64,000 bases of DNA from Spongiibacter sp. (GTDB taxonomy: Bacteria; Pseudomonadota; Gammaproteobacteria; Pseudomonadales; Spongiibacteraceae). Position 1 is the first letter of the stretch; every line of letters begins with the position of its first letter. Under the pieces are notes generated by a model. It had not been told where the DNA came from and ran no database searches. It was given only the letters and a program-made list of their open reading frames with translations. Shown here piece by piece: positions 1 through 58,243 of this stretch. The translations under genes were made by a program, and so were the position numbers. The stretch is from contig JBFKEA010000002.1 of the NCBI GenBank assembly GCA_041619375.1, forward strand, positions 1,689 to 65,688, read 5' to 3'.

Positions 1-1083
1 GATCCCACGAATGGGCATCGGCGCGCCAGCCACTGGCACCTTAAAGCCGGTGGCCAAGACCACCGCGTCCACCTCGCGGCGCTCGCCATCGCGACTATAA
101 ATCGCCGTCTCATCCATCCGCGCGACGCCGTCGGCAATCACCTCAACGTTGGACTTACACAGGGCCGGATAGTAATCATCCGACAGCAGTACACGCTTAC
201 AGCCCATGGAATAGTTGGGCGTCAGCTTGCTGCGCAGCGCCGGATCTTTAACCACACTGCGCAGGTAGCTGCGCCCCGCCCACTCGCCGATGCGGGTAAA
301 TACGCTATCCCAAATAAACGCCGGCAGCACGCTCTCCATCTTGATGTACTGCAAGCGGCGAATCAGCTTCTGCAATATCGGCCAACGCTTGAAACGCAGT
401 TGCTCTGTGGCGCGCAATTCACGGTCGCGCTTGGGCAACACCCAGGGCGGCGTCCGCTGAAACACCGTTAACGCAGCCACTTTCGGCTGAATCGACGGAA
501 TCACTTGTATCGCACTGGCACCGGTACCCACTACCGCAACGCGCTTGCCGCGCAGCTCGTAATCGGTCTGCCATTCAGCGGTGTGCATCACCTTGCCTTT
601 AAAGCGATCCATGCCATCGATATTGGGGTACTGCGGAACATTGAGCGCCCCGATGGCCATTACCAAGGCACGGGCGCGCTGCACTTCTCCGCCGGCCAGC
701 ACTATTTGCCACTCACCGCTTCGCTCGCAGTAATTCGCGGCCGTAACTTGGGTAGAGAAACGAATCTTGCGCCGCAGCCGGTATTTGTCCGCGCAGTGGC
801 GCAGATAACGATGGATTTCCTGTTGCGGGCTAAACAGCCGTCCCCAGTTTGGGTTGGGCTCGAAAGAAAAAGAGTACAGGTGCGAGGGCACATCACAGGC
901 CGCGCCCGGGTAGAGATTATCCCGCCAAACTCCCCCCACATCTTCAGCTTGTTCAAAAATACGGTAGTTATCTATGCCGCTTTTCTGCAGCTGAATAGCC
1001 AAACCAATGCCGCCAAATCCGGCACCAACTATTGCCACGTCGAAAACGCCCGCCTGCTGGCGGCTATTATTGTCTGTACTCAT
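1..1083 (-). CDS. Flavin-containing (Baeyer-Villiger-type) monooxygenase, 3' end outside window
   Basis: Not in the ORF track because it runs off the left edge. Manual translation from ATG 1083 gives MSTDNNSRQQAGVFDVAIVGAGFGGIG (FAD Rossmann), GGVWRDNLYPGAACDVPSHLYS, fingerprint FKGKVMHTAEW and a second Rossmann VAVVGTGASAIQ. ATGA overlap with the upstream hydrolase stop. Confidence 0.9.
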   Translation of the reverse strand, partial: MSTDNNSRQQAGVFDVAIVGAGFGGIGLAIQLQKSGIDNYRIFEQAEDVGGVWRDNLYPGAACDVPSHLYSFSFEPNPNWGRLFSPQQEIHRYLRHCADKYRLRRKIRFSTQVTAANYCERSGEWQIVLAGGEVQRARALVMAIGALNVPQYPNIDGMDRFKGKVMHTAEWQTDYELRGKRVAVVGTGASAIQVIPSIQPKVAALTVFQRTPPWVLPKRDRELRATEQLRFKRWPILQKLIRRLQYIKMESVLPAFIWDSVFTRIGEWAGRSYLRSVVKDPALRSKLTPNYSMGCKRVLLSDDYYPALCKSNVEVIADGVARMDETAIYSRDGERREVDAVVLATGFKVPVAGAPMPIRGI

Positions 1084-2078
1084 ACTGAATATTCCGTTTT
1101 GCTGATCCAAAAATCACGCAACAACCGCGCTGTCTCCGCCGGTTCCTCAAGCATCGGCAAATGGCCAACCCCCGGCATAACCATCACCTGACAGTCGGCA
1201 ATCCGCTCGGCAAAGACATCACTGCAACTGGGGTCCAAAACTCGATCGCTATCTCCCCACAACACAAAGGTAGGGGCCTGAATATCGACGAGACGCTGCC
1301 AGGTATCCTGTAGCGAGGCCACCAAGTGGCCAAACAGATAGTGATTAACCGGGTGGCGATGACACATCTCCCCGGCCATCACCCAGGACAAGCCCATACC
1401 CAGCAAGCGGTGACGGCGGTGCAGACAGATCTGAAATACCATCGCCGCGTCGCCACGCCGCTGCGGCGCTAGATAATTGCGCCCCGCCGCCACGCCACTT
1501 TCCAATACACTCATGCGCCGGCCCGGGGCTCCGGCGGCATTCATCAGGCATACCGCGCTAACGCAGTCGGGGTGGCGAGCCGCCAGTTGCGCGGCAATCG
1601 CACCGCCCATCGAGCTCCCGGCGACAAATACTGGACCGCAGTTCAAGGTCTGGATGAGAGCCGCCAAGCGATCCACCTGAGCACCCAGGGCATAGTCGGC
1701 GCCGAAGCGGAACTCACTGCCGCCAAAACCTGGCAGGTCGGGCACTAGCAAGCGAAACTGGCTGGCCAAATGCGGCGCGATAAACGCCCAGTTCTCTCGA
1801 CTAGCGCCAAACCCGTGCAATAACAACAAGGTTGGACCGCTGAGGTTACCGCCCTGCCAATAGCTCAACTGGTGGCCATCGATACGCACACTGGCACTGC
1901 GCATGCCGGCCTGCAAACTCATCAGCGGCTGCAGCCGGCGCCACAAGGAGTGGCGCAGTGGCCGCCAAGCCTGCAGTGCAGCGGCGTCATAGCGGGCCAG
2001 CGGGCCCGCCAAAAACTGCTGATGCATCTGTTCTAGCATCGCACCAGCATCCGCCTGCGCAGACAGCGGCGCATTCAC
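1080..2078 (-). CDS. Alpha/beta-fold hydrolase (lipase/esterase)
   Basis: LLHGFGA, PDLPGFG, nucleophile elbow GSSMGG, WGDSD and GHLP motifs. Overlaps both neighbours by 4 nt. Confidence 0.88.
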   Translation of the reverse strand: MNAPLSAQADAGAMLEQMHQQFLAGPLARYDAAALQAWRPLRHSLWRRLQPLMSLQAGMRSASVRIDGHQLSYWQGGNLSGPTLLLLHGFGASRENWAFIAPHLASQFRLLVPDLPGFGGSEFRFGADYALGAQVDRLAALIQTLNCGPVFVAGSSMGGAIAAQLAARHPDCVSAVCLMNAAGAPGRRMSVLESGVAAGRNYLAPQRRGDAAMVFQICLHRRHRLLGMGLSWVMAGEMCHRHPVNHYLFGHLVASLQDTWQRLVDIQAPTFVLWGDSDRVLDPSCSDVFAERIADCQVMVMPGVGHLPMLEEPAETARLLRDFWISKTEYSV

Positions 2079-2953
2079 GCGCCCGCTCCCGCCAGCTTCT
2101 CGTAAGACTCTACTTCGCTCACCAACTCATCTACGTCGTCAAGAAAACGACGGTTGTCGTGGTCCCAGGGATGGAAGCCCGGTTTAAAGAAGTCCAGCCA
2201 ATCGGGAACAACCCGTCGCAACATACCCGGCGATCCCCACAGGAAGTTCATCGCGCCCAGCCAGCCGGTAATACTAAACAGCTTACCCTCGCGAGCCACC
2301 ATGCCGATATGAATGGGAATGACCATCACCCAGAACACCATGGTCGCCAAGAGCAGGGCTAAACAGCGACGGAAATACGCGATAGGGCCGCGGCCAACCG
2401 TTTGTTCATAGACATCAAACGCCACCGCCTTGTGCTCGGTTTCCTCCAGCGCATGCCAGCGCCACATCGCGGAAAAACGCGGCTCCGAACCCGCCAGAGC
2501 GCGCGGTTCTTTCAACAGGGAATCGGCCAGAATCGCCGTCAGGTGTTCTAGGGCAATGGTAATGGCCAGCTGACCCGCGCGACTTTCCACCTTGCGGGTA
2601 AAATTCAGCAGCCCGAGAATGATCCGCGAATTGCGCGCCGCCGGCATGCCGCGCTTCTCCAGCGCATCGTTATACTCTTCGTGCTCGCGACCGTGCATGG
2701 CCTCCTGGCCGATAAAAGCGCGCACCGCCTCCTTCAGCTCAGGGTCTTTAACCTCGTCGCGATAGGCGCGAACACTGTCGATAAAAAATCGCTCGCCATC
2801 GGGGAAAAACAGCGACATGGCATTAAAAAAATGGCTGACATGTACACCTTTGCCATGCCAATCACCGACCCGCTCCTCGGGAAGGTGAAACTCTAGATTA
2901 CGGCGTACTGGCATCACTTCTGTTTTCATAGTCCGATCCCTCAACTGAGTCAT
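2075..2953 (-). CDS. 'Metal-dependent hydrolase' family protein (PF10118-like, helical E/H-rich)
   Basis: FPDGERFF, FIGQEAMHGREH, ALEHLT, WHALEETEHKAVAFDV and FKPGFHPW motifs typical of the family. Confidence 0.85.
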   Translation of the reverse strand: MTQLRDRTMKTEVMPVRRNLEFHLPEERVGDWHGKGVHVSHFFNAMSLFFPDGERFFIDSVRAYRDEVKDPELKEAVRAFIGQEAMHGREHEEYNDALEKRGMPAARNSRIILGLLNFTRKVESRAGQLAITIALEHLTAILADSLLKEPRALAGSEPRFSAMWRWHALEETEHKAVAFDVYEQTVGRGPIAYFRRCLALLLATMVFWVMVIPIHIGMVAREGKLFSITGWLGAMNFLWGSPGMLRRVVPDWLDFFKPGFHPWDHDNRRFLDDVDELVSEVESYEKLAGAGA

Positions 2954-2962
2954 TAATCTATG

Positions 2963-3008
2963 TTACACCATATGATGTTATAATTAACATTACATCGTTT
3001 AATGTCAA
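2963..3008 (-). promoter_or_regulatory. Two ACAT-N6-RTG operator-like dyads and a TTGACA -35 element
   Basis: Minus strand TGACAT-TAAACG-ATGTAA (2990-3007) and TAACAT-CATATG-GTGTAA (2963-2980); TTGACA at 3003-3008. The matching -10 is ambiguous. Confidence 0.55.
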
Positions 3009-3048
3009 ATTAACTTTCGCTAATAAACGCTGAACTGAAACTTCACTA

Positions 3049-3729
3049 CTAAAAAGGATTGAAATTCCGATATTCCGGCCGCGCTACCACCTCTCGAAGC
3101 CGCTTCAGCGTCTCATAGGGGTTGTCGACAATCAGGCTATTGACCAGGCTGGCAGGCAGCGCTCCGCCCGGGTCCAAGTGCAACTGAAAGATCACCGCAG
3201 TGCGATTGTCAGCCTGAGGGCTCAGCTCAAAATACCCCTTAAGCGCCGGCACCCGCTTGGCCCCTTCTGCCTCGGGAATCAGCGCGCGCTTGGCGGCCGG
3301 CAACTGCTGCTCATCAAAACTCTGCAAACTGATGCGTGTCACCCGGGTATCGGCGTCCTGACTGATCTGATTGCGCAGCAGTAACACGCGGTCAGCCGCC
3401 GGCCACGGAAAGTCATTGACCAGATACTGATAGCGATCGAGCAATGACGGCTTGTACAGCAGCTGCGCCTCGCGACAGTTATGCATCCAGCTGACGAAGG
3501 CCGCCGTATCGTCCAACACCGCCATCAACTGATTGATCTCCGCGTCAATCACCGTTTCACCGCGAAACTCTCGAACCGCAGACCCGTCCACCGCCCGGGT
3601 ATACACGGCAATCCCCGCCTTATTTTTTTCCTCGCGCCACTCACTGGGCTCAGCGTAGCCCGCCCCAGCAAACGCCAGCGCAAGCCAAAATACCGAGCAC
3701 TGCTTTAACAACACAGCTAACAGCTTCAT
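3049..3729 (-). CDS. Exported START/SRPBCC lipid-binding domain protein
   Basis: N-terminal signal-like segment; GIAVYTR, FPWPAADR and DPGGALPASLVN motifs of bacterial START proteins. Confidence 0.82.
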   Translation of the reverse strand: MKLLAVLLKQCSVFWLALAFAGAGYAEPSEWREEKNKAGIAVYTRAVDGSAVREFRGETVIDAEINQLMAVLDDTAAFVSWMHNCREAQLLYKPSLLDRYQYLVNDFPWPAADRVLLLRNQISQDADTRVTRISLQSFDEQQLPAAKRALIPEAEGAKRVPALKGYFELSPQADNRTAVIFQLHLDPGGALPASLVNSLIVDNPYETLKRLREVVARPEYRNFNPF

Positions 3730-3785
3730 CTGCCTCTCCTTATTGCTTATTGGCTAAAGCGACGCCCCCGGCGCCGCGTCAAACA

Positions 3786-6260
3786 TCACATACGGTAGGT
3801 AAACTGCAGGGCAACTGAGCGCGGCGCCTCAATAAAACCGGTATGCCCGGTGGTGCCGAATAAGGTTTTTGCCAGTGGCGTGTCCGCGGCGTACACCACG
3901 ATGACTTCATCGGTGAGATTTTTGCCGATCAGCGCCACCTCCCAGCTGTGGTCTATCGCACCCACACCCAAGCGGCCATTCACCTTGTAGAAACCATCCT
4001 GCTCAACGCGGGGGTCGAGGTTGCTAGAGGGGTTGTATTTATCGGTGAAAATCACATCCAGCGAGGCACCAATGCCCAGGGTCGAACTAATCGGGCGCAT
4101 ATAACCCAGAATAAAGGTCCCCGACCAATCGGCCACATACTGGTTAGACATACCGCTGTAATCACAGTCGCGGCCGTTGGCCGCGTTCGGCTGCTGATCT
4201 TGGCGGCACTGACCGTTCTTAAAGTCTTTAAACTCGAAATCCAGCAGCGCCAGGGCACCCCCCAGGGTCAGGTAGTCGGTAACCTGCCAGCGGCCGTCCA
4301 TTTCAATACCCATGGTCACCGCTTCTTCCGCGTTACCCACTTGGAATCCAATCGTACCGTCGAAAATACTGATCTGCAGATTGCTGTACTCGGTATAAAA
4401 CGCCGCCACATTCAATTCTGCGGCGCCATCCAGCAGGCCGGTCTTCAAACCCAACTCATAGCTGACCGCCTCTTCTTCGTCATATTCGAAGGTACCTACT
4501 AACACCGTTTGATTAGCGACAACCGCATTGGGGTTGCGGAAAGTGAGTTCGTCGTCAGGTGTCGCGTTGGAGCGCGCATCAAAGCCGCCGGCCTTGAAGC
4601 CCTTGGTCGCCGTAAAGTAGGCCATTCCCTCGTCGGAATAGTCCCACTGCACATTCACCAGCGGGGAAAACTGGGTCTCGCTGCGCTCGCCCTTGAGGTT
4701 GTGCCGCTCCATCCCAAAAGTGATCGCAGCTACCGTATCCACCTCACCCATCGGCAGCTCATTGCCCTCGAGGTCGGTAATGGTCAGATGGCGACTGCCT
4801 CGTTTGTTCTCATAGGTATAGCGGCCGCCCAATGTCAGGCGCAGGGTATCGGCAACATTGATGGTTGACTGCAAAAATGCCGAGGCAATTTTTGACTTAC
4901 TGGTAAATTCACGCGGCCCTTTAATATCTGCAATCGCATTACCGGCATCGCCAAAACCCAGCACCTCATAGGGATCGGCAGCCAGGCCCAGGGGGTCGAG
5001 ATCACCCCGCGCGCCGCCTTCGATAAAGTCAGCCGCATTGAGCAACTCGACCACTAAATTCGAGTCCTGAATCAGCTCGTCGTGAAAGTTAAGATCGTTC
5101 TGCTGAAAATACAGGCCGGCGATATAATCGATTGTTTCACCACCGGGCGACACCCAGCGAAACTCTTGGCTCAGCTGCTGGTAATCTTCCTGCATGACGA
5201 ACTTAAACAGCTCCGCCGCCGTCGCATCACAGTCGCAGAGGTCGTCGTACTCATACTTGAGCAAGCCAGTAATCGCGCTGAACTCGTGACCCTCCGGGCT
5301 GACCCAGCTCATTTTAAGCGTGAGGTTATTGGTGTCGTTATTGCTGTAATTGCCGTTGGACGAACCCTTGTAGTCTTGATAGTTATTGCGCACCGACTCG
5401 TCGGTATCGACATCGAGGAACGGCGGATAGTAGCTGCGATCCAGAATTTCCGCCTGGGTGCGGCCAGCCAGAATAGGGTTGGATGACGTGGAAGGCTCGT
5501 CGTTAATCACCTCGCCGTGGCGACCCACCGTGTCGAACTTGCCCTTCTCAAATTTCAGCTCGGCGCGCAGTTGGTCGGTAACATCCCACACCCCTTTCAC
5601 ACGGAAGGTCGCCTGGTCGTACTGAGGCCCCTCAATATCCATATTGAGATCTTCCATGTAGCCGCCAAATTCGCGCAGGCGGGCAGCAAAGCGCAAACCG
5701 AAGGTATCGGTAACCGGACCCGACACCATCAAGTCAACCACCTTCTCGTCAAACTCGGGCTCGTATAGCGCCGAAAAAAGGCCTTCTACCTCCTCCCCAG
5801 AGGAGGCAGTAATAATATTCAGCGCGCCGGCGATACTGTTTTTACCCTGCAGAATATTCTGCGGCCCGCGCAGTACTTCGACCCTTTCCAGGTCGAGAAA
5901 CGGTGCCCTGGCGAGCTGTGCCCGGCCGTAGTGAATACCGTCGACATACATCCCCACCGACTGTTCAAAGCCTTGGTTCATGCCGGTGCCAATACCGCGC
6001 ACGTAAATATCGGTACTGATACCGCTCTCAGTTACCGTCAGGTTTGGCACATAGGCCTGCAGGTCCTCCATGCGGTTTATACCCGCTTCCATCATCTTAT
6101 CGCCGCCAATCGCGCTGACCGACACAGGAACATCTTGCAGACTCTGAGCACGATGCTGGGCGGTAACCACCACCTCTTCAAGCTTTGCCGCCCAGCCAGC
6201 GACAGGAATTGCGCAGGTCAGCGCTATGCTACCCACCCGCAATATGCTAAAACTACCCAT
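3786..6260 (-). CDS. TonB-dependent receptor
   Basis: Signal peptide, TonB box LEEVVVTAQ, plug motif DLERVEVLRGPQ, C-terminal KNLTDE...PRS...FTYRM. Confidence 0.95.
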   Translation of the reverse strand: MGSFSILRVGSIALTCAIPVAGWAAKLEEVVVTAQHRAQSLQDVPVSVSAIGGDKMMEAGINRMEDLQAYVPNLTVTESGISTDIYVRGIGTGMNQGFEQSVGMYVDGIHYGRAQLARAPFLDLERVEVLRGPQNILQGKNSIAGALNIITASSGEEVEGLFSALYEPEFDEKVVDLMVSGPVTDTFGLRFAARLREFGGYMEDLNMDIEGPQYDQATFRVKGVWDVTDQLRAELKFEKGKFDTVGRHGEVINDEPSTSSNPILAGRTQAEILDRSYYPPFLDVDTDESVRNNYQDYKGSSNGNYSNNDTNNLTLKMSWVSPEGHEFSAITGLLKYEYDDLCDCDATAAELFKFVMQEDYQQLSQEFRWVSPGGETIDYIAGLYFQQNDLNFHDELIQDSNLVVELLNAADFIEGGARGDLDPLGLAADPYEVLGFGDAGNAIADIKGPREFTSKSKIASAFLQSTINVADTLRLTLGGRYTYENKRGSRHLTITDLEGNELPMGEVDTVAAITFGMERHNLKGERSETQFSPLVNVQWDYSDEGMAYFTATKGFKAGGFDARSNATPDDELTFRNPNAVVANQTVLVGTFEYDEEEAVSYELGLKTGLLDGAAELNVAAFYTEYSNLQISIFDGTIGFQVGNAEEAVTMGIEMDGRWQVTDYLTLGGALALLDFEFKDFKNGQCRQDQQPNAANGRDCDYSGMSNQYVADWSGTFILGYMRPISSTLGIGASLDVIFTDKYNPSSNLDPRVEQDGFYKVNGRLGVGAIDHSWEVALIGKNLTDEVIVVYAADTPLAKTLFGTTGHTGFIEAPRSVALQFTYRM

Positions 6261-6292
6261 TCTGACACGCCCTTATGAATCAAATTATTATG

Positions 6293-6337
6293 TAACATTA
6301 TTTGATGAAACATAAATTGATGAGCAACTGCTGTCAA
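6293..6337 (-). promoter_or_regulatory. Sigma70-like promoter of the TonB receptor overlapped by two ACAT-N6-ATG dyads
   Basis: Minus strand TTGACA-N17-TATGTT. Plus strand TAACAT-TATTTG-ATGAAA (6293-6310) and AAACAT-AAATTG-ATGAGC (6308-6325). Confidence 0.55.
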
Positions 6338-6472
6338 GACCGGAACAAAAATTTGTGCACAAAATCGCCAGCATTAGGAGCTGTATTCTTACAAGCTATT
6401 GATTAAAATACTTTTTATCAAAAAGCCCAGACCCAAAGTCTGAACAAGCCCCCAGTCCGAGCAGTAAAACGC

Positions 6473-7306
6473 ATGCGATTCCCAGAAGACACCATAAACA
6501 ATATGGCCCAGTACCTGCCCCAAGGCGGCGAGCTCAATGCAGCAAAGGGCGACGAGGAAGTGCAACGCGAATACAGTGTTGAAGAGCTGGCGCTGGCCGC
6601 TAATACCACCGTGCGCAATATCCGCGCCTACCAAGACCGTGGGGTGTTACCACCACCAGCGCTGCGCGGCCGCAAGGGTATTTACAATAACCAACACCTG
6701 TCCCGACTTAGATTGATCGCCAACCTGCTCGAGCGCGGCTACACCCTTTCTTCAATTCGCGAACTGCTGTCGGCAATGGAACAGGGTATCGGTCTGAGCG
6801 AAGTTCTCGGCATGGAGTCGGCGATTAACTCTCCCTGGGGGAGCGAAGCGCCCGTAATCATATCCATGACTGAAATGGTGAAAATGTTTGGCACCAAGCT
6901 GACCCCCAGCGCCATCAAAAAAGCCGCCGAGCTCGACCTATTTTCAGTGAATGGCACCCAGCTTCGGGTGACCAGCATGAACACCCTGAAAGCCGCTGAG
7001 GAACTCTGTAAAACCGGTATTCCACTGGAAGAACTATTGAAAATATTGACTGTTATGCGCGGCAATGTGCAGCCGGTCGCCGACTCCTTCGTTAAGCTGG
7101 TCACCCAGCATGTGCTGGAACCCTATGGCGAGCAACCACTGCCCCCAAAAGAAGAGTTCCCACAGATTGCGGAGCTAGTATGGCGCTTGCGACCACTGGC
7201 GCAAATCGTAGTGGACGCCGAATTGGGGCGGGCTATGGACTACGCAGCAAGCCGCTTTCTGGCGGACAAGTTGGAGTCCATTCTCAAGCAGTTGCCTGAG
7301 GATTAA
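6473..7306 (+). CDS. MerR-family transcriptional regulator
   Basis: HTH YSVEELALAANTTVRNIRAYQDRGVLPPP...RLRLIANLLERGYTLSSI. Divergent from the TonB receptor. The true start may be ATG 6503. Confidence 0.88.
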   Translation: MRFPEDTINNMAQYLPQGGELNAAKGDEEVQREYSVEELALAANTTVRNIRAYQDRGVLPPPALRGRKGIYNNQHLSRLRLIANLLERGYTLSSIRELLSAMEQGIGLSEVLGMESAINSPWGSEAPVIISMTEMVKMFGTKLTPSAIKKAAELDLFSVNGTQLRVTSMNTLKAAEELCKTGIPLEELLKILTVMRGNVQPVADSFVKLVTQHVLEPYGEQPLPPKEEFPQIAELVWRLRPLAQIVVDAELGRAMDYAASRFLADKLESILKQLPED

Positions 7307-47218: not shown

Positions 47219-49230
<2,012 letters not shown>

Positions 49231-49234
<4 letters not shown>

Positions 49235-50364
49235 AAAAGCTCATTGCCAGTGCGACCCTGTGCTGCATCCTACCCATTACGGCGGTTGCCAGTGCCGACA
49301 TCAATGTGGGTGGCGCGCTGCGCTTTCAATACAGCTTTGAAGACTACGATGACGGCAACCGCCAGCGCGTCGGTGATATCGACCTCGACACCCTGCGCAT
49401 CAATTTCGACGGTAGTGTCGACAACATCTTGCTATCCGCCGAGCTTCGCTACTATCAGTACATGGAAGTCGTGCACCACGCCTGGCTGGGCTACCAGATA
49501 AACCCGCAGTGGCAGCTGCAATTCGGCATCACCCAACTGCCCTTTGGCAACCTGCCCTATAACTCCCACAGCTTCTTTTTCAGCAGTAACTACTACCTGG
49601 GGCTGGAAGACGACTACGACTTCGGCATTAAATTTCTCTACCAGGGTGAGCGACTTGAAAGCCAGCTTGCGCTGTTTAAAAACGACGAACAGGGCGGCAT
49701 CGACGGCTATGTCGACAACCGCAGTGACCGCTATTCCTACGATGTGGTCGGCAGCCGCAACACAGGTGAAGGGATCTACGACGCCCCCGGTACCGGCCGC
49801 GCCCTTGCCGAGAGCAATACCCTGGCTTGGCGGGTAGCCGGCGACCTGCTCGACCACAAGAGTGACAGCCTAGAAATCGGCTTGTCTGTCCTACACGGCC
49901 AGCTGCACAACGACGAAGACGCTTCAGCTGGCGACTACAGCGCCTTTGCCCTGCACTTAAATGGTCAATTTGGCCACTGGAACCTGCAATTATGCAGCGG
50001 CCACTACGAGTACAACACCGACGATGGCGCTGAGCTAATGGTGGTCGCGGCCTACTCCTTCTTCGATAGCATCGCAGCCTCAGCCGATATCCACAGCGCC
50101 AACCTCGCCTACCAGTTCGACCAGCCCGTCGACGGTATCGACAGCATTAGCCTCTACCTGGACAACAGCTTAGTCAGTGGCAAGTCAGCCGGCCTCGACG
50201 ACACCCGAATGCATGTCCTGGGAGCGGCAATCAGTAAGGGGAGCTTATTCACCTACGTGGACCTTATCCACGCCGAAAACCAGCCGTTTATCGGCGGCAG
50301 TATGGGTGCCAATGCCGGCAACCGTAACACCCGCTTTAACATTAACCTCGGCTTCTACTTCTAA
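49231..50364 (+). CDS. Outer-membrane porin-like protein
   Basis: ATGA overlap with the BCCT gene, signal peptide, GGALRFQY, C-terminal NINLGFYF. Confidence 0.8.
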
Positions 50365-50477: not shown

Positions 50478-51665
50478 TTAGCCTTCGATCTGATAGTAAT
50501 CCATCAGAATCTGCGCCACTTCAGGACGGGAGAACTCAGGCGGTGGTGCAATGCCATTGCCCAGCATCTCGCGGACCTTGGTGCCCGACAACAGCACAAA
50601 GTCCTCTTTGGCGTGATCGGGGGCGTCGCGCATCATCACGACCTTGTTCAGCTTCTTCGAGTAGGCGGTGTGGTCAGCGCGGTAGATATCGATTTCCAGT
50701 GCGCCTTCGGGCACTTTCTCGTCGAAAATGGTCTGCGCGTCAAAACCGCCGTAGTAGTCGCCCACACCGGCGTGGTCGCGGCCGACGATCAGGTGAGTAC
50801 AGCCACAGTTCTGACGGAACACCGCGTGCAGCACCGCCTCGCGGGGGCCCGCATACAGCATGTCGAAGCCGTAACCGGTGATCATCACGGTGTTTTTCGG
50901 AAAGTACACTTCAACCATCTTGCGGATGGAGGCATCGCGCACATGGGCGGGAATATCGCCAGCCTTCAGCTTGCCCAGCAGCATGTGGATCAGAATACCG
51001 TCGGTACCCAGATCTTCCATCGCCATGCGGCACAGCTCTTCGTGGGCGCGGTGCATCGGGTTGCGCGTTTGAAAGGCAACCACTTTTTCCCAACCGCGCT
51101 CAGAAATCTCGTTGCGAATTTCAACTGCGGTGCGGAAGGTATCGGGGAAATCTGCCTGGAAGTAGCTGAAGTTCAATACCTGAATCGGGCCTGACAGCAG
51201 AGTGTTGCCCAGTGCCTTAAAGGTCTTCACGCCCGGGTGGTCCGCGTCCAGTGTGCCGAAGATATTCTCGGCCATAAAATCGATCTGCTCGTCGCTGACT
51301 GCTTCAACAGCCTCAACGTCCATGATCGCCAGCACGGGATTGCCTTCAACATTGGGGTCGCGCAGTGCAATACGGCTGCCCGCTTCAATGCCTTGGGCAT
51401 CCTGTACCAGGTTCACCACCGGCACCGGCCAGAACAGGCCTTCGGCAGTGTGCAGTTTCTCGGCCACGCTCAGGGAGTCGGCCAGATTCATATAGCCGCT
51501 CAGCGGGGTGAAGTAACCGGCGCCCAGCATCACTGCGTTAGCGGCAGCAGCAGAGCTGACCACAATAGACGGCAGGGTTTCCGCTTCGGCATTCAGGGCG
51601 TGGTGTTTTTCAGTGTCGTAGACAAACAGCGGCTTCAGTTCGTCGGCGCCATGGGGCTTAATCAT
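50478..51665 (-). CDS. sat: Sulfate adenylyltransferase (Sat-type ATP sulfurylase)
   Basis: AFQTRNPMHRAHE, YAGPREA, GRDHAGVG, SGTKVR and RPEV motifs. Confidence 0.96.
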   Translation of the reverse strand: MIKPHGADELKPLFVYDTEKHHALNAEAETLPSIVVSSAAAANAVMLGAGYFTPLSGYMNLADSLSVAEKLHTAEGLFWPVPVVNLVQDAQGIEAGSRIALRDPNVEGNPVLAIMDVEAVEAVSDEQIDFMAENIFGTLDADHPGVKTFKALGNTLLSGPIQVLNFSYFQADFPDTFRTAVEIRNEISERGWEKVVAFQTRNPMHRAHEELCRMAMEDLGTDGILIHMLLGKLKAGDIPAHVRDASIRKMVEVYFPKNTVMITGYGFDMLYAGPREAVLHAVFRQNCGCTHLIVGRDHAGVGDYYGGFDAQTIFDEKVPEGALEIDIYRADHTAYSKKLNKVVMMRDAPDHAKEDFVLLSGTKVREMLGNGIAPPPEFSRPEVAQILMDYYQIEG

Positions 51666-51719
51666 CGGGTAACTCCGTAATTCAGGGTGTAAAAATAGGG
51701 TTCAAAGCCAAGTCGCAGC

Positions 51720-52331
51720 TCAGATAATGCCGCGCTCTTTCAGCATCGCCAACAGCACGTCAACCTCTTCTTCCAGGCTCAGCTCGTGGCTGTTTAACAC
51801 CAGCTCCGGGCTCTCTGGGGCTTCATAGGGGTCGTCGATGCCGGTGAAGTTTTTGATCTCGCCAGCGCGGGCTTTTTTGTACAGGCCTTTGGGGTCGCGC
51901 TCTTCGGCCACTTCCAGCGGCACATTGACGTAAACCTCAATGAACTCCATATCGCTTTCGGCATGCAGTGCACGGACCGCATCGCGATCTTCGCGGTAGG
52001 GGCTCACAAAGCTGCTCAATACAATCACGCCGGTGTCGACAAACAGTTTGGAAACCTCGCCGATGCGGCGAATGTTCTCGGCGCGATCTTCGGCACTAAA
52101 GCCCAGGTTTTTGTTGATACCCATGCGGATATTGTCGCCGTCCAGACGGTAGCAGAGGTGGCCCTGCTGCATCAGTGCCTGCTCCAGCGCCACCGCCACA
52201 GTGCTTTTGCCGCTGCCCGACAGGCCCGTGAACCACAGCGTGGCGCCCTTCTGCTTGAGCAGGGCATTGCGGTCTTCGCGGCTGACTTCGCCGTCGTGCC
52301 AGTGAACATTGGTGGCTTTCACTTCAGTCAT
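51720..52331 (-). CDS. cysC: Adenylyl-sulfate (APS) kinase
   Basis: [26 protein letters not shown] and [11 protein letters not shown] motifs. Confidence 0.96.
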
Positions 52332-52446
52332 GGGATTCTCCGGGGTAATTAGCGGTCATGCAGACAGCGGCCTGGGCCACTGGGGTAATTGGCGGCCATC
52401 ATACGGCGACACCAGCAACAAGTAAAACGGCTTATAGCTATACTCA

Positions 52447-52465
52447 CTATCGAAAAAATCGATAG
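52447..52465. promoter_or_regulatory. LysR recognition box (T-N11-A dyad)
   Basis: CTATCGA-AAAAA-TCGATAG perfect dyad in the cysC/LysR divergent intergenic region. Confidence 0.7.
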
Positions 52466-52497
52466 CAAATTCAGCCGCCAGCCACTAGGCTTTAGCA

Positions 52498-53379
52498 ATG
52501 AACTACAGTCTGCGACAACTCAGCATTTTCCTCGCGGTGGCCCGCCACGAAAACGTCTCCAAGGCCGCCGCCGAACTCAATCTGTCCCAGTCGGCGGCCA
52601 GCGCCGCCCTGCAAGCGCTGGAGCGCAACTACGGCGTATCGCTGTTTGAGCGCCAGGGCAACAAACTGCAGCTCAATCCGGTGGGCCACAGCCTGCGCAA
52701 AGAGGCCGAGACCCTATACGCCCACGCCCAGCAGTTCGACCAACTGCTGCAGCGCCACGGCGAGCTGGGCCACCTCAAGGTGGGCGCCAGCTTTACCATT
52801 GGCAACCATCTGGTGGTGCGCTATTTGGCCGACTACCTGAGCCACTACCCCGACGCCGATGTTGAACTGGACACCGCCAACACCCCCGAAATTGTCCACA
52901 AGGTGCTGAACTACGAAGTCGATGTCGGCATGATCGAGCGCGAGGTGCAGCACCGCGAGCTGGAATTGATTCCGTGGATGGAAGACGAGCTGGTGGTGTT
53001 TTGCAGCGCCGACCACCCGCTGGCCAGTCAGCAGACGCTGAGCACCCGCGATATTAAAACTGCGCGCTGGATTCTTCGCGAGCCCGACTCCGGTGCCCGC
53101 CACACCTTCGACCGGGCGCTGGCCGGGCTGCTGCCGGAAATCAATATCTACCGCGAGTTTCGCCACAACGAGGCGATTAAAAGCGCAGTGGAATCCGGCC
53201 TGGGCATTGGCTGCCTGTCGCAGGTGGTGCTGCAGAACGATTTTCGCAATGGCACATTGGTGCCGCTGAAGCTGGCACGGCGCGATATGCGCCGCCGCTT
53301 TTACTTTGCCCTGCCCCGCAAGCGCCACGACAAGGCGGCGGTGAACTACTGGATTGAACTCTGCCGCCGCCAGCAATAA
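52498..53379 (+). CDS. LysR-family regulator (CysL/YeiE-like)
   Basis: HTH SKAAAELNLSQSAAS...LFER; GASFTIGN, ILREPDSG and EAIKSAVESGLGI motifs. Confidence 0.92.
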   Translation: MNYSLRQLSIFLAVARHENVSKAAAELNLSQSAASAALQALERNYGVSLFERQGNKLQLNPVGHSLRKEAETLYAHAQQFDQLLQRHGELGHLKVGASFTIGNHLVVRYLADYLSHYPDADVELDTANTPEIVHKVLNYEVDVGMIEREVQHRELELIPWMEDELVVFCSADHPLASQQTLSTRDIKTARWILREPDSGARHTFDRALAGLLPEINIYREFRHNEAIKSAVESGLGIGCLSQVVLQNDFRNGTLVPLKLARRDMRRRFYFALPRKRHDKAAVNYWIELCRRQQ

Positions 53380-53404
53380 CACCGCTGCCGGCGGCTAGCG
53401 CAAC

Positions 53405-54580
53405 TTACAAATACTTGGCGCGGTAGTCGGCAAACATGTCCTTGAGCTGCTGTTCGCTAAAGCCAAACTGTTCCAGCGTGTACTCGTGGGCCGGGCGCGC
53501 ATCGCGCTGATTGTCCTCGCGATAGCGCTCCATGGCATCGCGCGCCTCGGCGGTAAACGGCATGCCGATAAAATTGTAAACCCGCTCCATGCTCTTCAGC
53601 GGATCGCTGATGGTGTCCTTGTACCACACATCCAGAAACGCCTCGGGCTGCTGCTCGCGAGTGGCCATGGTATGCAGGGTGCCGCGGGCATATTTGTTGG
53701 CCCACTGCTCGCCGACCACCTTGGGGTCGACCGCATCGCTGCACATAATCCACAGGTTGTAGTTCATACTTGCCGCCGAGGGGATGGTCTGCAGCGGATC
53801 GCGGTGGGTCTGCACCACTTTGGCATCGGGAAACACCTTCAGTAAGGTGGCAATATGGTGCAGGTGGTGGGGCGTTTTCAACAGCCAGCGCTCGGCCTGC
53901 TGGCCATTGCGTTTTTTCTGCCACTGCAAAAATTGCAAGAGTCGCTTCAAATAGACATAGCCCGGCGTGTTGTCATGGCTGTCAATCCAAGCACCATAGC
54001 TGGGTACATTGCAAAAGGCATCGGGAATCGTGCTGTAGAAACTGTGCTCCAGCAGCAGAATATCCTCGTCGGCGCCCACCGGATCCATGGGGTGAATCGC
54101 GGCGATCTCCGGGTTGGCCTCCAGCATCGCGGCGATCTCCGCCTCGGCGGAGGTGATGCGCGGGTCTTTGCCGCTAAAGTCCCAGTCCAGCTCAGGCGCG
54201 GGATTGCGCACCTCGTACCACAGCGGCGCGTAAAAGCGCCGATCACTGGCCAAGATCCGGTGGGTGTAAGTGGAGCCCGTGCGCTGCAAGCCGATAATCA
54301 CCACCGGCGCCAACACCTGCTCGTCGAGAATCTCCGGGTGGCGGGCAATCCAGGCTTCCACCCGCAGGCGAATAATCAGGCTGTTCAAAATACGCTGATA
54401 CTGACCAAAGCGGCCGCCAGCATTGAGCTGGGCCTCTTCGTTAAGCGCCTTGACCAATACCGCCATCGGCTCGCGAAAGGAGTCATCGCCAAAATCCGTC
54501 AGCCCGCCAGTGGCCTCAATCGCCGCCGCCAGTAAGCCCTCGACACTCAGCTCTACCTCGGGAATCGCCTGCTCTGTCAT
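53405..54580 (-). CDS. PAPS-dependent sulfotransferase family protein
   Basis: 5'-PSB loop IGLQRTGSTYTH, WLLKTPHH and 3'-PB HRDPLQTIPS motifs. Confidence 0.9.
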   Translation of the reverse strand: MTEQAIPEVELSVEGLLAAAIEATGGLTDFGDDSFREPMAVLVKALNEEAQLNAGGRFGQYQRILNSLIIRLRVEAWIARHPEILDEQVLAPVVIIGLQRTGSTYTHRILASDRRFYAPLWYEVRNPAPELDWDFSGKDPRITSAEAEIAAMLEANPEIAAIHPMDPVGADEDILLLEHSFYSTIPDAFCNVPSYGAWIDSHDNTPGYVYLKRLLQFLQWQKKRNGQQAERWLLKTPHHLHHIATLLKVFPDAKVVQTHRDPLQTIPSAASMNYNLWIMCSDAVDPKVVGEQWANKYARGTLHTMATREQQPEAFLDVWYKDTISDPLKSMERVYNFIGMPFTAEARDAMERYREDNQRDARPAHEYTLEQFGFSEQQLKDMFADYRAKYL

Positions 54581-54610
54581 GGTTAAATCCTTGTGTTATT
54601 TTTCCAGCTA

Positions 54611-55747
54611 TTAATTGCTCAGCTCACTGAACTTAACCACCCGGCAGCGCGGGTCGACAATGCGCTCGGCGCCAATCCAGCGAAACGCCATCGTACCTTC
54701 GCGGTGACCCGTGGTGTCCAGCCAGTTATCGCAACCGGGGTCGCGGGCCGCCACCACAATACGCACTCCGCCATCGTCCTTGTAATGCGCGGTGTGCTTG
54801 TTCACATGGATGTCCACGTAGCGGTATTCCAGCGACTCCATCCAGTAATTATTCAGCTGAAAATTCCAGTTGTCGCAGTCGGGAATTTCGTCGGCCTCAA
54901 TCACCAGGGCTTCATCGTCGGCCAGATTAAAATAACCGTGGTAGTAGTAAATATTGGGATCGCCGCCCAGCTTCTGGCAGTAGGCCTGATCGGCCGCCGG
55001 CAGGGTATTGGGCTGTTGCTTAAAGCCCTCGGCCCAGTCGGCAAACAAGGTGGCCGTGCCCTTGACAAAGGCCGCCGTGCTGCGCAGCTTGGCGGCAAAC
55101 TGCTCAGCATCCAACGGCTTGGGCTTGGCGCCCTCGCGATTCAGGCGCTCGATTTTCAGCTCGGCCGCCGCCTCGCTCTTGCGATCCAAAAATGTCTGGC
55201 GCACCAGCACCGCAAGGGTATCGTCGGTAATCGGCAGCCAGTTACCCGGCTGTGGCTGGCGCGACAGAATAATCTCGATATTGCCATCGCTGTCCACTTC
55301 CAAGCCGCCGTGAGTATCCAGCGCCCCCACCGAGCGCATATTGCCGTCCTCTTCCTCGTAGCCGCCGGCAATGGCGATAAAACCCAGATAGGCAACGCTG
55401 CCGCGACTGCCGCAAATGCGGTAATCGTGGGCACCATTGATTTCGGCGCGCTGATAATAGTTATCGGGGTTGTCGGCACCAATCTTGGCAGTTTCGTGGG
55501 AGGGACGGTAAAAATCCGGGAAGTCGGGGTCGCTGCACTCAACAAACATATCCAGCGCGATGCGCGTTAAGCGCGTTAAATAGCGCCAGCCTTCCGCGCG
55601 GTGCAGGGCGTCGCCGGGCGCCTCGGGACGCAATATCTGTTGACCGGCCTCTTTCAGCTGGTCGCAAAACTCCGCCCACAGCTCGCCGCTCATCACCGCG
55701 TCTATCGACTCATTCACTGTGCGCTCGGGGCCCGATTCATTCGCCAT
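54611..55747 (-). CDS. DUF1214-containing protein
   Basis: AEGWRYLTR, GADNPDN.Y, WNFQL.NYWMESL and DPG..NWLDT.GH..G...RW motifs of sulfotransferase-associated DUF1214 proteins. Confidence 0.8.
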   Translation of the reverse strand: MANESGPERTVNESIDAVMSGELWAEFCDQLKEAGQQILRPEAPGDALHRAEGWRYLTRLTRIALDMFVECSDPDFPDFYRPSHETAKIGADNPDNYYQRAEINGAHDYRICGSRGSVAYLGFIAIAGGYEEEDGNMRSVGALDTHGGLEVDSDGNIEIILSRQPQPGNWLPITDDTLAVLVRQTFLDRKSEAAAELKIERLNREGAKPKPLDAEQFAAKLRSTAAFVKGTATLFADWAEGFKQQPNTLPAADQAYCQKLGGDPNIYYYHGYFNLADDEALVIEADEIPDCDNWNFQLNNYWMESLEYRYVDIHVNKHTAHYKDDGGVRIVVAARDPGCDNWLDTTGHREGTMAFRWIGAERIVDPRCRVVKFSELSN

Positions 55748-55821
55748 CTTTATCTCCGCTTATTGTGCTGAGCATCATGGCGCGGCCGAGCGCGACCGAC
55801 ATCACCCAGAGGGGTGAAACA

Positions 55822-56505
55822 TCAGTCTTCGCGGATACGCCGATACCACTGCGCTGGCTGGTCGATCTCGCCATCCTCTTCACGCAGCGGCGGGTAGTCC
55901 AGTCCCTTGGCCCGGCAAAAATCGCGAACTTCGGGGTGGGCCCATTCAAACAAGGTGCGCTGATAACTTTGCCTGTCCAGCCGAGGCTGGTCATATAATC
56001 CGGCGCGATCGCGCTGATACTGCGCCTCCGACAATATGATGCCGGCCGCGACCGACACATTGTAGGACTGCACCATGCCCATCATCGGTATGGTAATATG
56101 GGCGTCGGCCAAGGCGCAGGCCTCGGCGCTAACCCCGCGCTTTTCCGCGCCCAATAATACCGCCGTTGGCCGCGTGTAATCGGGCTGACGGTAGTCCACC
56201 GAGTCCTCGCCTAAATGGGCCGCCAACACCTGATAACCGCGCTCCTGCATGCCCCCTATCAACTCTGCGATATCGCGGTGTCGCCGCACTGCCACCCAGC
56301 TGTGGCTGCCCATGGCCGTACCGCGAAAGGCGCGGTAGTCCTTGTCGTCAATAACGGCGTGCATCTCGGCAATACCGGCCGCATCGGCGGTGCGCACAAT
56401 GGCCGACAGATTGCGGCCCTTGTGCACATTATCGGTAATGAGTGTCAAATCGGGTTGGCGGCGATCTAGCACCGCTCGCAGGCGTTGGTAGCGCTCGGGA
56501 GTCAT
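55822..56505 (-). CDS. trmH: tRNA (guanosine-18-2'-O)-methyltransferase
   Basis: MTPERY, RRQPDLT, NLSAIVRT, GAEKRG and IPMMGMVQSYNVSVA (SPOUT) motifs. Confidence 0.93.
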   Translation of the reverse strand: MTPERYQRLRAVLDRRQPDLTLITDNVHKGRNLSAIVRTADAAGIAEMHAVIDDKDYRAFRGTAMGSHSWVAVRRHRDIAELIGGMQERGYQVLAAHLGEDSVDYRQPDYTRPTAVLLGAEKRGVSAEACALADAHITIPMMGMVQSYNVSVAAGIILSEAQYQRDRAGLYDQPRLDRQSYQRTLFEWAHPEVRDFCRAKGLDYPPLREEDGEIDQPAQWYRRIRED

Positions 56506-56530
56506 GGCAGTCGTAAAATCAAAAGCCCCA

Positions 56531-56956
56531 TTATACCTGCATCTCGATCACCGCCATGGTCAATCGCGAAATACACACATCACGCTGTTGCTGGTCGCGA
56601 ATGCGGATATCCCACACCTGGGTAGTGCGCCCTATATGAATCGGCTTGGCCACTGCCGTGACCCGACCGTCCCTGACCTTGCGCAAATGATTGGCATTGA
56701 TATCGAGGCCCACACAGGCCTTGCCCGGCTCAGCCGCCATCATTGCGGCCATGCTGCCCACCGTCTCGGCCAGTACGACCGACGCGCCGCCATGCAATAT
56801 GCCCATCGGTTGATGGCTACGCGAATCGACCGGCATACTGGCACTGAGATAGTCATCACCAATCTCTTCAATGCGAATATCCAGTACCTCGGCGATGGTA
56901 TTGACCATCATCTCGTTGGCTTTGTCGACGCTACTATGCTGTTTCCACAAGCTCAT
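56531..56956 (-). CDS. Hotdog-fold thioesterase (PaaI/MenI-like)
   Basis: QPMGILHGGASVVLAETVGS and GLDINANH motifs. Start placed at MSLWK. Confidence 0.9.
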   Translation of the reverse strand: MSLWKQHSSVDKANEMMVNTIAEVLDIRIEEIGDDYLSASMPVDSRSHQPMGILHGGASVVLAETVGSMAAMMAAEPGKACVGLDINANHLRKVRDGRVTAVAKPIHIGRTTQVWDIRIRDQQQRDVCISRLTMAVIEMQV

Positions 56957-57094
56957 ACTGACACTCCTTCTAGTCAATGCCCCCAGTTCTATAACATGCC
57001 CAGCCCAAAGTAGCTGGCCCTAGTGGCTTTTAAAGTGTTCCCTGTTAACATGAATGGGAAAATAAGGCCAAAACTATCACAAAGGAGGTCAGCC

Positions 57095-58243
57095 ATGAGC
57101 GGCATGCCACGATATATTTACGAAGAAGAACATGAAATGTTCCGCACCTCGGTGCGTCGATTCCTCGAAACCGAGGCCGCGCCCTACCACGCCCAATGGG
57201 AGAAAGATGGCCACGTTGACCGCCAGCTGTGGATCAAAGCCGGTGAACAAGGCTTTCTGTGCCCCACCGTCGGCGAGGCATACGGCGGCGTCGGCGCTGA
57301 CTTCCGCTACAACGCCATTGTCGATGAAGAAATCGGCCGCAGCGGACTGACCGGCATCGGCTGGGGGCTGCACTCCGATATCGCCGTGCCCTACATCATC
57401 AGCTACGGCAATGAAGCCCAGAAAGAAAAATACCTGCCTAAATGTGTCAGCGGCGAAATCATCACCGCCATCGCCATGACCGAGCCCGGTGCCGGCTCCG
57501 ATTTGCAGGGCATTAAAACCACGGCCGTTAAAGACGGCGACGACTATATTCTCAACGGCTCCAAGACCTTTATCACCAACGGCCAACTATCTGACCTGGT
57601 GATTGTGGTGGCCAAAACCGACCCCACTGCCGGCGCCAAGGGCGTCAGCTTGTTCCTCGTTGAATCCGGCACCCCCGGCTACAGCAAGGGCGCCAATCTG
57701 GAAAAAGTGGGCATGAAAGCCCAGGACACCTCCGAGCTGTTCTTCCAAGATGTGCGTATTTCCAAGGACCAACTGCTCGGCGAAGAGGGCATGGGCTTTG
57801 TCTACCTGATGCAGGACCTGCCCCAGGAGCGCCTCAGCGTCGCCATCAATGCGATCGCCAATGCCAAATCGGTGCTGGAGCAAACCATCGACTACGTTAA
57901 GGAGCGCAAGGCCTTTGGCAAAACGGTTGCCACTTTCCAGAACACCCAGTTCAAGCTGGCGGAAATGGATACCGAACTCACCGTCGCCGAGGCCTATATG
58001 GATCGCTGCCTGGAGCTGCACATCAACAAGCAGTTCGACTCCGTCGCCGCCGCCAAGTGCAAGTTGATGGCCACCGACCTGCAGTGCAAGGTCATCGACG
58101 AGTGCCTGCAGCTGCACGGCGGCTACGGCTTTATGTGGGAATACCCAGTGGCTCGCGCCTTTGCCGACTCCCGCGTGCAGCGCATCTACGCCGGCACTAA
58201 CGAGATCATGAAACTGATCATTGGTCGCGAACTGATTCGCTAA
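57095..58243 (+). CDS. Long-chain-type acyl-CoA dehydrogenase
   Basis: AAGGAGG SD; AMTEPGAGSDLQ, NGSKTFITNG, LPQERL, QLHGGYG and RIYAGTNEIMK motifs. Confidence 0.94.
   Translation: MSGMPRYIYEEEHEMFRTSVRRFLETEAAPYHAQWEKDGHVDRQLWIKAGEQGFLCPTVGEAYGGVGADFRYNAIVDEEIGRSGLTGIGWGLHSDIAVPYIISYGNEAQKEKYLPKCVSGEIITAIAMTEPGAGSDLQGIKTTAVKDGDDYILNGSKTFITNGQLSDLVIVVAKTDPTAGAKGVSLFLVESGTPGYSKGANLEKVGMKAQDTSELFFQDVRISKDQLLGEEGMGFVYLMQDLPQERLSVAINAIANAKSVLEQTIDYVKERKAFGKTVATFQNTQFKLAEMDTELTVAEAYMDRCLELHINKQFDSVAAAKCKLMATDLQCKVIDECLQLHGGYGFMWEYPVARAFADSRVQRIYAGTNEIMKLIIGRELIR

Follow-up and report, generated by a model that had tools for sequence, protein, structure and literature searches.

Five neighbouring genes concerned with sulfate activation and sulfate transfer are described here from a 64,000-nt stretch of a Spongiibacter metagenome-assembled genome (MAG) that is 74% complete (assembly GCA_041619375.1, contig JBFKEA010000002.1, positions 1,689 to 65,688; this whole stretch is called the window, and its genome G000). 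They are sat and cysC, which encode an ATP sulfurylase and an adenosine 5'-phosphosulfate (APS) kinase, a lysR gene, and a DUF1214-like gene followed by a sulfotransferase (ST) gene. An earlier note on this DNA had combined them into one self-contained sulfation module, in which 3'-phosphoadenosine 5'-phosphosulfate (PAPS) serves sulfation rather than cysteine synthesis. The five genes and their coordinates were borne out by open reading frames and by Pfam and NCBIfam domains (Table 1), as were the opposite-strand lysR between the two gene pairs and the 30-nt gap between the DUF1214-like and ST genes, which holds an AAGGA ribosome-binding site. The locus is instead probably made of two adjacent, separable units, namely a housekeeping lysR/cysC-sat unit and a DUF1214-like/ST cassette.

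The place of sat-cysC in the general metabolism of the cell emerges from a comparison with 36 other Spongiibacteraceae genomes, most of which are 99-100% complete. Exactly one Sat (TIGR00339) is present in 34 of the 36, and the two genomes without it are 76-80% complete; sat is the sole sulfate adenylyltransferase in the Spongiibacter genome, as it is in every relative for which one was detected, and cysC always adjoins sat and lysR in the relatives. The presence of a separate cysDN, which the earlier note had proposed to check, found no support, as CysD is missing from the MAG and the ~305-aa CysD-type PAPS_reduct match from all 36 family genomes, strong matches being confined to other families of the order. 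Because the family holds a single Sat and no CysD, sat-cysC is its sole activation route. One small CysH-like frame (213-250 aa) occurs in every one of these relatives, and a sulfite-reductase-type protein of 550-600 aa with two NIR_SIR domains in 24 of the 24 genomes searched, and the relatives therefore show what an assimilatory operon would lead one to expect, that is, the only activation route together with one CysH and one CysI-type protein per genome. The arrangement of a dedicated cluster like nodPQH, with activation genes as an extra copy, is not found here, since the family has a lone Sat and lacks CysD. The orthologous ST pair is absent from four complete genomes of the same genus (G013, G018, G020 and G027), which keep sat-cysC all the same, and this speaks against the private supply of PAPS that had been proposed.

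The destination of PAPS in these bacteria can be approached through the CysH of G017, the closest relative, in which the ST has 99% identity to that of the window. This CysH reaches 145, 129 and 114 bits on PAPS reductase models (145 on NF002537) versus 59 bits on APS_reductase, all of these scores lying below the curated cut-offs. Its C terminus reads ECGLH, and the CC and CxxC motifs with the Fe-S cysteines of APS reductases are absent from it. Since CysH fits the PAPS reductase models and carries no Fe-S cysteines, the enzyme of the relatives appears to be of the PAPS reductase type, and PAPS is probably an intermediate of cysteine synthesis too; the claim that PAPS serves sulfation rather than cysteine synthesis does not hold here, given also the single Sat and the absence of CysD. 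The statement that the window holds no cysH or cysIJ was correct and can be extended, as no PAPS_reduct (CysH) or CysD match was found anywhere in the 74%-complete MAG, and its NIR_SIR matches comprise a NirB-sized frame and a weak match, both on other contigs. The suggested check for a separate cysH thus came out negative in the MAG itself and positive in the relatives, with one CysH per genome.

The lysR gene belongs with cysC-sat as well. It is divergent from cysC across a 166-nt spacer and convergent with the ST gene, 25 nt away, and cysC lies upstream of sat with a gap of 54 nt. The divergent arrangement of lysR and cysC recurs in 14 of 14 family loci examined, whether the ST pair is present or not: G018 and G013 have the order trmH-lysR-cysC-sat with the ST pair exactly missing, and in G006, G009, G010 and G030 the lysR-cysC-sat trio is located elsewhere, far from the ST pair. 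A block of ~60 nt in the lysR/cysC spacer, with a palindrome and a promoter-like site facing cysC, is conserved across the family; ATC-N9-GAT is present in the spacers of 12 of 14 relatives, including loci from which the ST pair is absent or where it lies elsewhere, and AGTAAAA and CATnATA blocks are conserved in the 14 aligned spacers. Because lysR stays with cysC-sat in 14 loci and the box is kept in 12 of the 14 spacers, LysR probably regulates cysC-sat, through the predicted spacer palindrome, and not the ST. LysR was also considered as regulator of the ST pair and was rejected, as LysR and its box accompany cysC-sat everywhere. We suggest that sat-cysC-lysR be annotated as housekeeping sulfate activation and not as part of a secondary-metabolite module. 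For the DUF1214-like/ST pair, a candidate operator or promoter element is the palindrome TCACC-N6-GGTGA, conserved as TTCACCyyTCTGGGTGATG in 12 aligned Spongiibacteraceae loci. Six copies of it occur in the genome, where ~3 would be expected by chance, and the only one clearly intergenic and ahead of a gene is that upstream of the DUF1214-like gene; a regulon search with this motif found no copy at the locus of the short-chain dehydrogenase/reductase (SDR) described below.

The second unit is widespread. A wider scan with one genome per species gave 586 loci, of which the best 80 were kept (all counts out of 80 refer to these), with hosts including Spongiibacteraceae, Halieaceae, Pseudomonas, Nevskiales, Burkholderia, Cupriavidus, Comamonas and Herbaspirillum. 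In 77-78 of the 80, spread over Gamma- and Betaproteobacteria, the DUF1214-like gene has the ST gene immediately behind it, and since this adjacency recurs in so many independent loci, the arrangement is far beyond chance. Such a pair occurs three times in the MAG itself, twice with the gene order reversed, and 9 of the 15 ST paralogues of G059, a genome of the same order and another family, adjoin a DUF1214-like paralogue in either order. The distance matrices of partner paralogues are moderately correlated (Mantel r 0.48, reached by 7 of 5000 permutations; r 0.41, reached by 97 of 5000, for G059 alone). The two domains also occur fused, as DUF1214-ST (P0121) and SRPBCC-ST-DUF1214 (P0273), besides a DUF1214-SnoaL protein. 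The ST and the DUF1214-like protein are, in short, a true, near-obligate and uncharacterised pair; the earlier note had called such pairs functionally uncharacterised, and a literature search agrees with it, in that no paper was found to combine DUF1214 with sulfotransferase and only three mention DUF1214 at all. The two further pairs of the MAG are on contigs C162 (positions 2081-4357) and C282 (570-2862), with the ST gene first and with 23-34% identity to the window pair, and the one on C162 is surrounded by RNA-modification genes.

The ST is a predicted cytoplasmic, PAPS-type sulfotransferase of the Stf1-like kind. It scores 136.7 bits on PF13469 (cut-off 27) and 41.3 bits on PF00685 (cut-off 22), and it aligns end to end with the Stf1-type structures PDB 2ZQ5 (E 2e-46) and 2Z6V (E 3e-42), to which its identity is in the 30-35% range and with which it has both PAPS motifs in common. 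These motifs, GLQRTGST at residues 97-104 and THRDPLQTIPS at 258-268, match the same motifs in 2ZQ5 and are both kept in 9 aligned relatives, and GLxRTG(S/T)T, THRDPxxTxxS and KxPHH are conserved in the ST alignment, so the assignment to a PAPS-dependent sulfotransferase family made earlier is upheld by profile and motifs alike. Neither the ST nor the DUF1214-like protein has a recognizable signal peptide. Three EukProt records (P0122, P0293 and P0297) are ~800-aa proteins from eukaryotic transcriptomes with a long unrelated extension each. Their recognised domain is in some cases DUF1214-like (42% identical) and in others a Stf1-like ST domain (35-37% identical); P0293 and P0122 were considered as DUF1214/ST fusions and rejected, and none of the three joins both domains.

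The cassette is commonly found close to a source of PAPS. A gene for APS kinase lies within 8 kb of the pair in ~55 of the 80 loci. At least six gene arrangements can be told apart: colinear DUF1214-ST-cysC-sat-SDR; colinear cysD-cysNC-DUF1214-ST; divergent cysNC-cysD beside DUF1214-ST; DUF1214-ST-cysC; cysC on the opposite strand; and the lysR-interrupted form of this window. The first of these is found in G059 and in five MAGs of Gammaproteobacteria. In Pseudomonas, Burkholderia, Comamonas and Cupriavidus the pair has a second cysD-cysNC of its own, and in each of the five genomes of other genera tested CysD is present twice, once at the module; the module CysNC is the sole APS kinase match in Cupriavidus, and in Comamonas the sole other match is marginal. 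That the cassette in general keeps a PAPS source at hand is well supported. The term sulfation module is thus apt for the cassette across Proteobacteria, as the linkage and the second copies indicate, but not in the sense of a private supply in this genome. In the window the ST adjoins the activation genes, as it would in a dedicated cluster. In the 28 Spongiibacteraceae genomes where linkage could be determined, the ST pair and sat-cysC are linked in 17 and unlinked in 11. The earlier note had named as fatal to its proposal the finding that sat-cysC is the only activation route and is unlinked from the ST in relatives; the sole route is what was found, and the lack of linkage holds for the 11 genomes but not for the other 17. 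The adjacency seen here is most simply a remnant of a colinear DUF1214-ST-cysC-sat-SDR operon, which lysR would have split and from which the SDR would have moved to another locus, the direction of change being unrooted.

An orthologous SDR follows the pair in most loci outside Spongiibacteraceae and is 54-84% identical to the reference query SDR. The triad of DUF1214-like protein, SDR and Stf1-type ST, contiguous in most other loci, is not contained in one operon in the window; the SDR orthologue of the MAG (53-56% identity) is on contig C14, beside a PAS-LuxR regulator. In G004 and G059 the SDR gene comes directly after sat, and the genomes of the genus that have no SDR orthologue are exactly the four complete ones without the ST pair. 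Fusions of ST and SDR, 734-786 aa in length, account for 22 of 24 long matches; they are spread over many unrelated records of metagenomes and genomes, of which at least two lie outside Proteobacteria. In all three that were looked up (a Myxococcales MAG, a Binatia MAG and one further contig), a DUF1214-like gene lies directly upstream, and the Myxococcales locus also holds CysNC and an Inositol_P-type phosphatase. Frequent companions of the pair are SRPBCC and SnoaL_4 proteins, a ~240-aa protein without a name, a DHH/DHHA1 protein and a LuxR-type regulator. The lipid or sterol-like acceptor proposed earlier agrees with this setting to the extent that a hydrophobic acceptor fits the SDR, SRPBCC and SnoaL neighbours and the fusions. 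On contig C17 of the MAG (positions 783-3529), a DHH/DHHA1 phosphoesterase gene, its product 51% identical to one in Pseudomonas sulfation modules, is directly followed by a gene for a CitMHS/SLC13 permease with two TrkA_C domains; the two could be a pair of 3'-phosphoadenosine 5'-phosphate (PAP) phosphatase and sulfate uptake. The MAG also has four KshA_C-type matches (3-ketosteroid 9-alpha-hydroxylase family) on contigs C8, C16 and C29, the best with E 2e-72, and the four same-genus genomes without the ST pair are also without strong KshA-type matches. This co-variation is only a lead to steroid-type substrates, as it may reflect a single clade.

The DUF1214-like protein belongs to a distinct subfamily of ~375 aa, of which PDB 6ANS is the structural representative. 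The PF06742 match covers only residues 138-183, and in fused relatives the second half matches too; the protein has two halves, each of a helix plus beta-sandwich, and is 56-57% identical to 6ANS (E 1e-137). Its AlphaFold2 model (predicted local distance difference test, pLDDT, 83) has a template modelling (TM) score of 0.90-0.92 to 6ANS and of only 0.46 to 2P3Y, 3VB9 and 3U07. No DUF1254 match was obtained, so the usual DUF1254-DUF1214 architecture of VPA0735 and VPA0106 is not found in this protein. A Foldseek search against the PDB gave nothing beyond structural-genomics entries without a characterised function (6ANS, VPA0106 and VPA0735) and weak jelly-roll noise (TM <0.2), and a search of the Atlas only unnamed DUF1214 clusters, those of ~375 aa being common in Actinomycetota; the partner family comprises 4,653 clusters at 50% identity (E up to 0.001). 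Among paralogues that are 25-35% identical, N93, D95, Y98, Y109, R110, E158, N169 and R183 are invariant, as are D278, E279, N316, D336, N341, W342 and R356, and the most conserved loops have low pLDDT. Between Gamma- and Betaproteobacteria the orthologues of the DUF1214-like protein are 55-60% identical versus 45-48% for the ST. High conservation and invariant polar residues, as read from the alignments, favour an enzyme acting on a sulfate ester. On a metagenome contig from JGI (L136, positions 6001-7128), a 375-aa DUF1214-like gene is found without an ST; its neighbours encode an ADP-forming CoA ligase, family III CoA transferases, a thiolase, ChsH2-type and MaoC hydratases and an acyl-CoA dehydrogenase. 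The DUF1214-like family is therefore not always tied to sulfation.

Taken together, these data may be arranged into the following scheme. Sat would make APS and CysC would make PAPS, with LysR controlling the cysC-sat promoter through the conserved spacer palindrome; this PAPS would flow to a CysH of the PAPS reductase type and a sulfite reductase, both encoded elsewhere, for cysteine synthesis, and to cytoplasmic sulfotransferases as well. The SDR would set the hydroxyl of a small hydrophobic compound, such as a lipid, a steroid or a comparable alcohol; the ST would move sulfate from PAPS onto that hydroxyl; and the DUF1214-like protein would work on this compound too or on its sulfate ester, as an enzyme or as a binding partner. 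We infer that SDR and ST act consecutively on such a hydroxyl because of the fusions, because SRPBCC and SnoaL proteins are encoded nearby, and because glycosyltransferase and export genes are absent beside the pair in the window, where no membrane-anchoring genes adjoin it either. Several points weigh against the division into two units or against parts of this scheme. The relatives are not independent, and the four genomes without the pair may reflect a single loss; since the pair and sat-cysC are unlinked in 11 of the 28 genomes, their co-location is not required; CysH and sulfite reductase are inferred for the incomplete MAG from its relatives, and the preference of the G017 CysH for PAPS is read from sequence, with scores below the cut-offs. 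No protein of known function was found among the fold relatives of the DUF1214-like protein. Each of the three DUF1214 fusions is a singleton, and the co-folding of the two proteins that the earlier note had advised, run on the natural fusion P0121 only and with an unpaired alignment, gave good domains in AlphaFold2 (pLDDT 87) but no confident domain interface (predicted TM score, pTM, 0.56).

The original idea of one self-contained module, with sat-cysC feeding this ST instead of cysteine synthesis and LysR regulating all five genes, draws on the adjacency of the genes here and in 17 of the 28 determinable relatives, on the colinear strings of G059 and the five MAG loci, and on the dedicated cysD-cysNC copies beside the pair in other genera; moreover, if CysH used APS, cysC would serve sulfation alone. 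It is nevertheless improbable in view of the single Sat and the absence of CysD in the family, the fit of CysH to PAPS reductase models without Fe-S cysteines, and the sat-cysC-lysR trio, which is kept in genomes without the pair, moves independently of it and retains the LysR box where the pair is absent, not to mention that at least three ST/DUF1214 pairs in the genome must share the same PAPS. A module for choline-O-sulfate or another osmolyte sulfate ester would account for the BetT-type transporter gene (47219-49234) and the coupled porin-like gene (49231-50364) that adjoin sat, and it is very improbable: these genes lie beside sat only in the nearest relatives G014, G008 and G013 and are absent from every other locus with the pair, and synteny led to its rejection, as G013 has BetT-porin beside sat without an ST pair.

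With two separable units as the more probable layout, the role of the DUF1214-like protein within the cassette can be seen in two ways. It may be a non-catalytic partner that presents a poorly soluble acceptor or stabilises the ST, the product being a stable sulfated lipid or metabolite such as an envelope lipid or a signal. This possibility, which we put forward tentatively, is in line with pairs that are paralogue-specific and partly co-diversifying, with the rare fusions to ST and with the ligand-binding folds of the SRPBCC and SnoaL type in the same operons, and the product of a related mycobacterial enzyme, Stf3, is a stable sulfated menaquinone; it would, however, be unusual for a pure carrier to have polar residues that do not vary among distant paralogues, the fusion model has no confident interface, and the window has no export or membrane-anchoring genes beside the pair. 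Alternatively, sulfate might be a leaving group: the SDR would make a secondary alcohol, the ST would sulfate it and the DUF1214-like enzyme would eliminate or displace the sulfate, without build-up of a sulfated end product; such a step would belong to pathways that degrade or remodel lipids or steroids. The better conservation of the DUF1214-like orthologues than of the ST can be cited for this, along with polar and charged residues invariant across distant paralogues, of which three arginines could hold an anion, conserved loops of low pLDDT, as active-site lids often are, and ST-SDR fusions that imply consecutive steps. Dedicated PAPS synthesis and a candidate PAP phosphatase (the DHH/DHHA1 or Inositol_P protein) suggest high flux, some DUF1214-like genes without ST lie among CoA-ligase, thiolase and ChsH2-type genes, and the presence of strong KshA-type matches in genomes of the genus follows that of the pair. 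Yet no catalytic fold relative was found, PAPS is a costly activating group for catabolism, the KshA co-variation may be that of a single clade, and many hosts (such as Pseudomonas and Cupriavidus) are not known as steroid degraders. We regard the leaving-group route as rather unlikely. In its broadest form, equally doubtful, the DUF1214-like protein would be a new type of enzyme on sulfate esters that, with SDR and ST, activates hydrophobic alcohols by sulfation and then eliminates or displaces the sulfate in at least two proteobacterial classes, Myxococcota, Binatia and possibly the mycobacterial cholesterol regulon, with PAPS from a private cysD-cysNC or from an adjoining housekeeping sat-cysC.

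Several known systems bear comparison with the cassette. In the cytoplasm of Bacteroides thetaiotaomicron, a sulfotransferase (BT0416) acts on a sterol alcohol and is encoded in a cholesterol sulfotransferase cluster with cysC, cysD and cysN; this bacterium belongs to a different phylum from Spongiibacter, and the cluster is not known to have a DUF1214-like or SDR partner. In rhizobia, NodP, NodQ and NodH combine dedicated PAPS synthesis with a sulfotransferase for Nod factor, nodPQ being a second copy; the acceptor of NodH is an oligosaccharide, and neither a DUF1214 protein nor an SDR is known as its partner. The likeness to nodPQH lies in a PAPS-dependent ST beside activation genes and in the second cysD-cysNC of Pseudomonas, Burkholderia, Comamonas and Cupriavidus, whereas the activation genes of Spongiibacter are the sole copy and of the Sat plus CysC type. 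Sulfation creates a leaving group in CurM and in olefin synthase, where ketoreductase, sulfotransferase and thioesterase (KR-ST-TE) domains follow one another. A ketoreductase-type enzyme and a PAPS-dependent ST are physically joined in the ST-SDR fusions too, and a third protein is present, but here the proteins are free-standing, without the context of acyl carrier protein (ACP) or polyketide synthase (PKS), and the third one is DUF1214-like and not a thioesterase. The protein 6ANS of Burkholderia cenocepacia, a structural-genomics entry without an assigned function, is an orthologue-level relative of the DUF1214-like protein (TM 0.90-0.95), and in Burkholderia loci the DUF1214-like gene is likewise followed by ST, with a dedicated cysD-cysNC, an SDR and a DHH protein in addition.

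Among described systems, the mycobacterial Stf1 (Rv3529c) unit comes nearest. A gene table lists Rv3531c-Rv3530c-Rv3529c as a unit that joins a sulfotransferase, an oxidoreductase and a hypothetical protein (PMC6429209), and a bound KstR site has been placed upstream of Rv3531c (PMC1995591). This unit has no known acceptor, as is the case in Spongiibacter, where the SDR is on another contig and the pair stands beside sat-cysC and not inside a steroid cluster as in the mycobacterial unit. Rv3531c is presumably DUF1214-like. Bacterial cytoplasmic sulfotransferases with known acceptors are few, and the present one has a near-obligate partner from an uncharacterised family with a solved structure (6ANS) and no describing paper. 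SDR, ST and DUF1214-like protein, together with PAPS supply genes and a candidate PAP phosphatase, form a testable unit, and its hosts include the culturable and genetically tractable Pseudomonas putida, Comamonas testosteroni, Burkholderia and Zhongshania. Should the partner turn out to process sulfate esters, this would be a new type of reaction in lipid or steroid metabolism and might explain an unexplained operon of the mycobacterial cholesterol regulon.

Table 1. Genes and sequence elements of the sulfate activation and sulfotransferase locus, in window positions.
Feature	Position	Strand	Description
sat	50478..51665	-	395 aa; homo-oligomeric ATP sulfurylase; ATP-sulfurylase and PUA_2 domains; TIGR00339, 408 bits
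cysC	51720..52331	-	APS kinase, 203 aa; APS_kinase PF01583, 241 bits; NF003013, 289 bits
Promoter-like site of cysC-sat	52398..52426	-	TTTACT, 17 nt, TATGAT; consensus scan; inside the family-conserved spacer block
Palindrome CTATCGA-N5-TCGATAG	52447..52465		lysR/cysC spacer; holds a LysR box of the ATC-N9-GAT / T-N11-A type; read directly
lysR	52498..53379	+	293 aa; HTH_1 and LysR_substrate (Pfam, NCBIfam); nearest model YeiE-like
Sulfotransferase (ST)	53405..54580	-	391 aa; predicted cytoplasmic, PAPS-type, Stf1-like; Sulfotransfer_3, E 1.8e-39
DUF1214-like	54611..55747	-	378 aa; predicted cytoplasmic; PF06742, 36.3 bits (cut-off 25), partial match
Palindrome TCACC-N6-GGTGA	55802..55817		5 nt past the trmH stop, ~55 nt upstream of the DUF1214-like start

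Some features of the flanking DNA may be added. On the sat side, the BetT-type choline/betaine BCCT transporter (671 aa) and the porin-like protein (377 aa, with a signal peptide, a C-terminal ...GFYF and no Pfam or NCBIfam match) are encoded by translationally coupled genes that overlap by 4 nt at 49231-49234, and this gene pair is conserved in G014, G008 and G013. On the other side, the product of the acyl-CoA dehydrogenase gene at 57023-58243, considered as a possible member of the module, is a generic member of its family, of which an orthologue recurs beside the pair in a few other orders. Between trmH and this gene lies an open reading frame of 169 aa (56504-57013, forward strand) that matches no family and has weak counterparts, 30-47% identical, at the same place in relatives.

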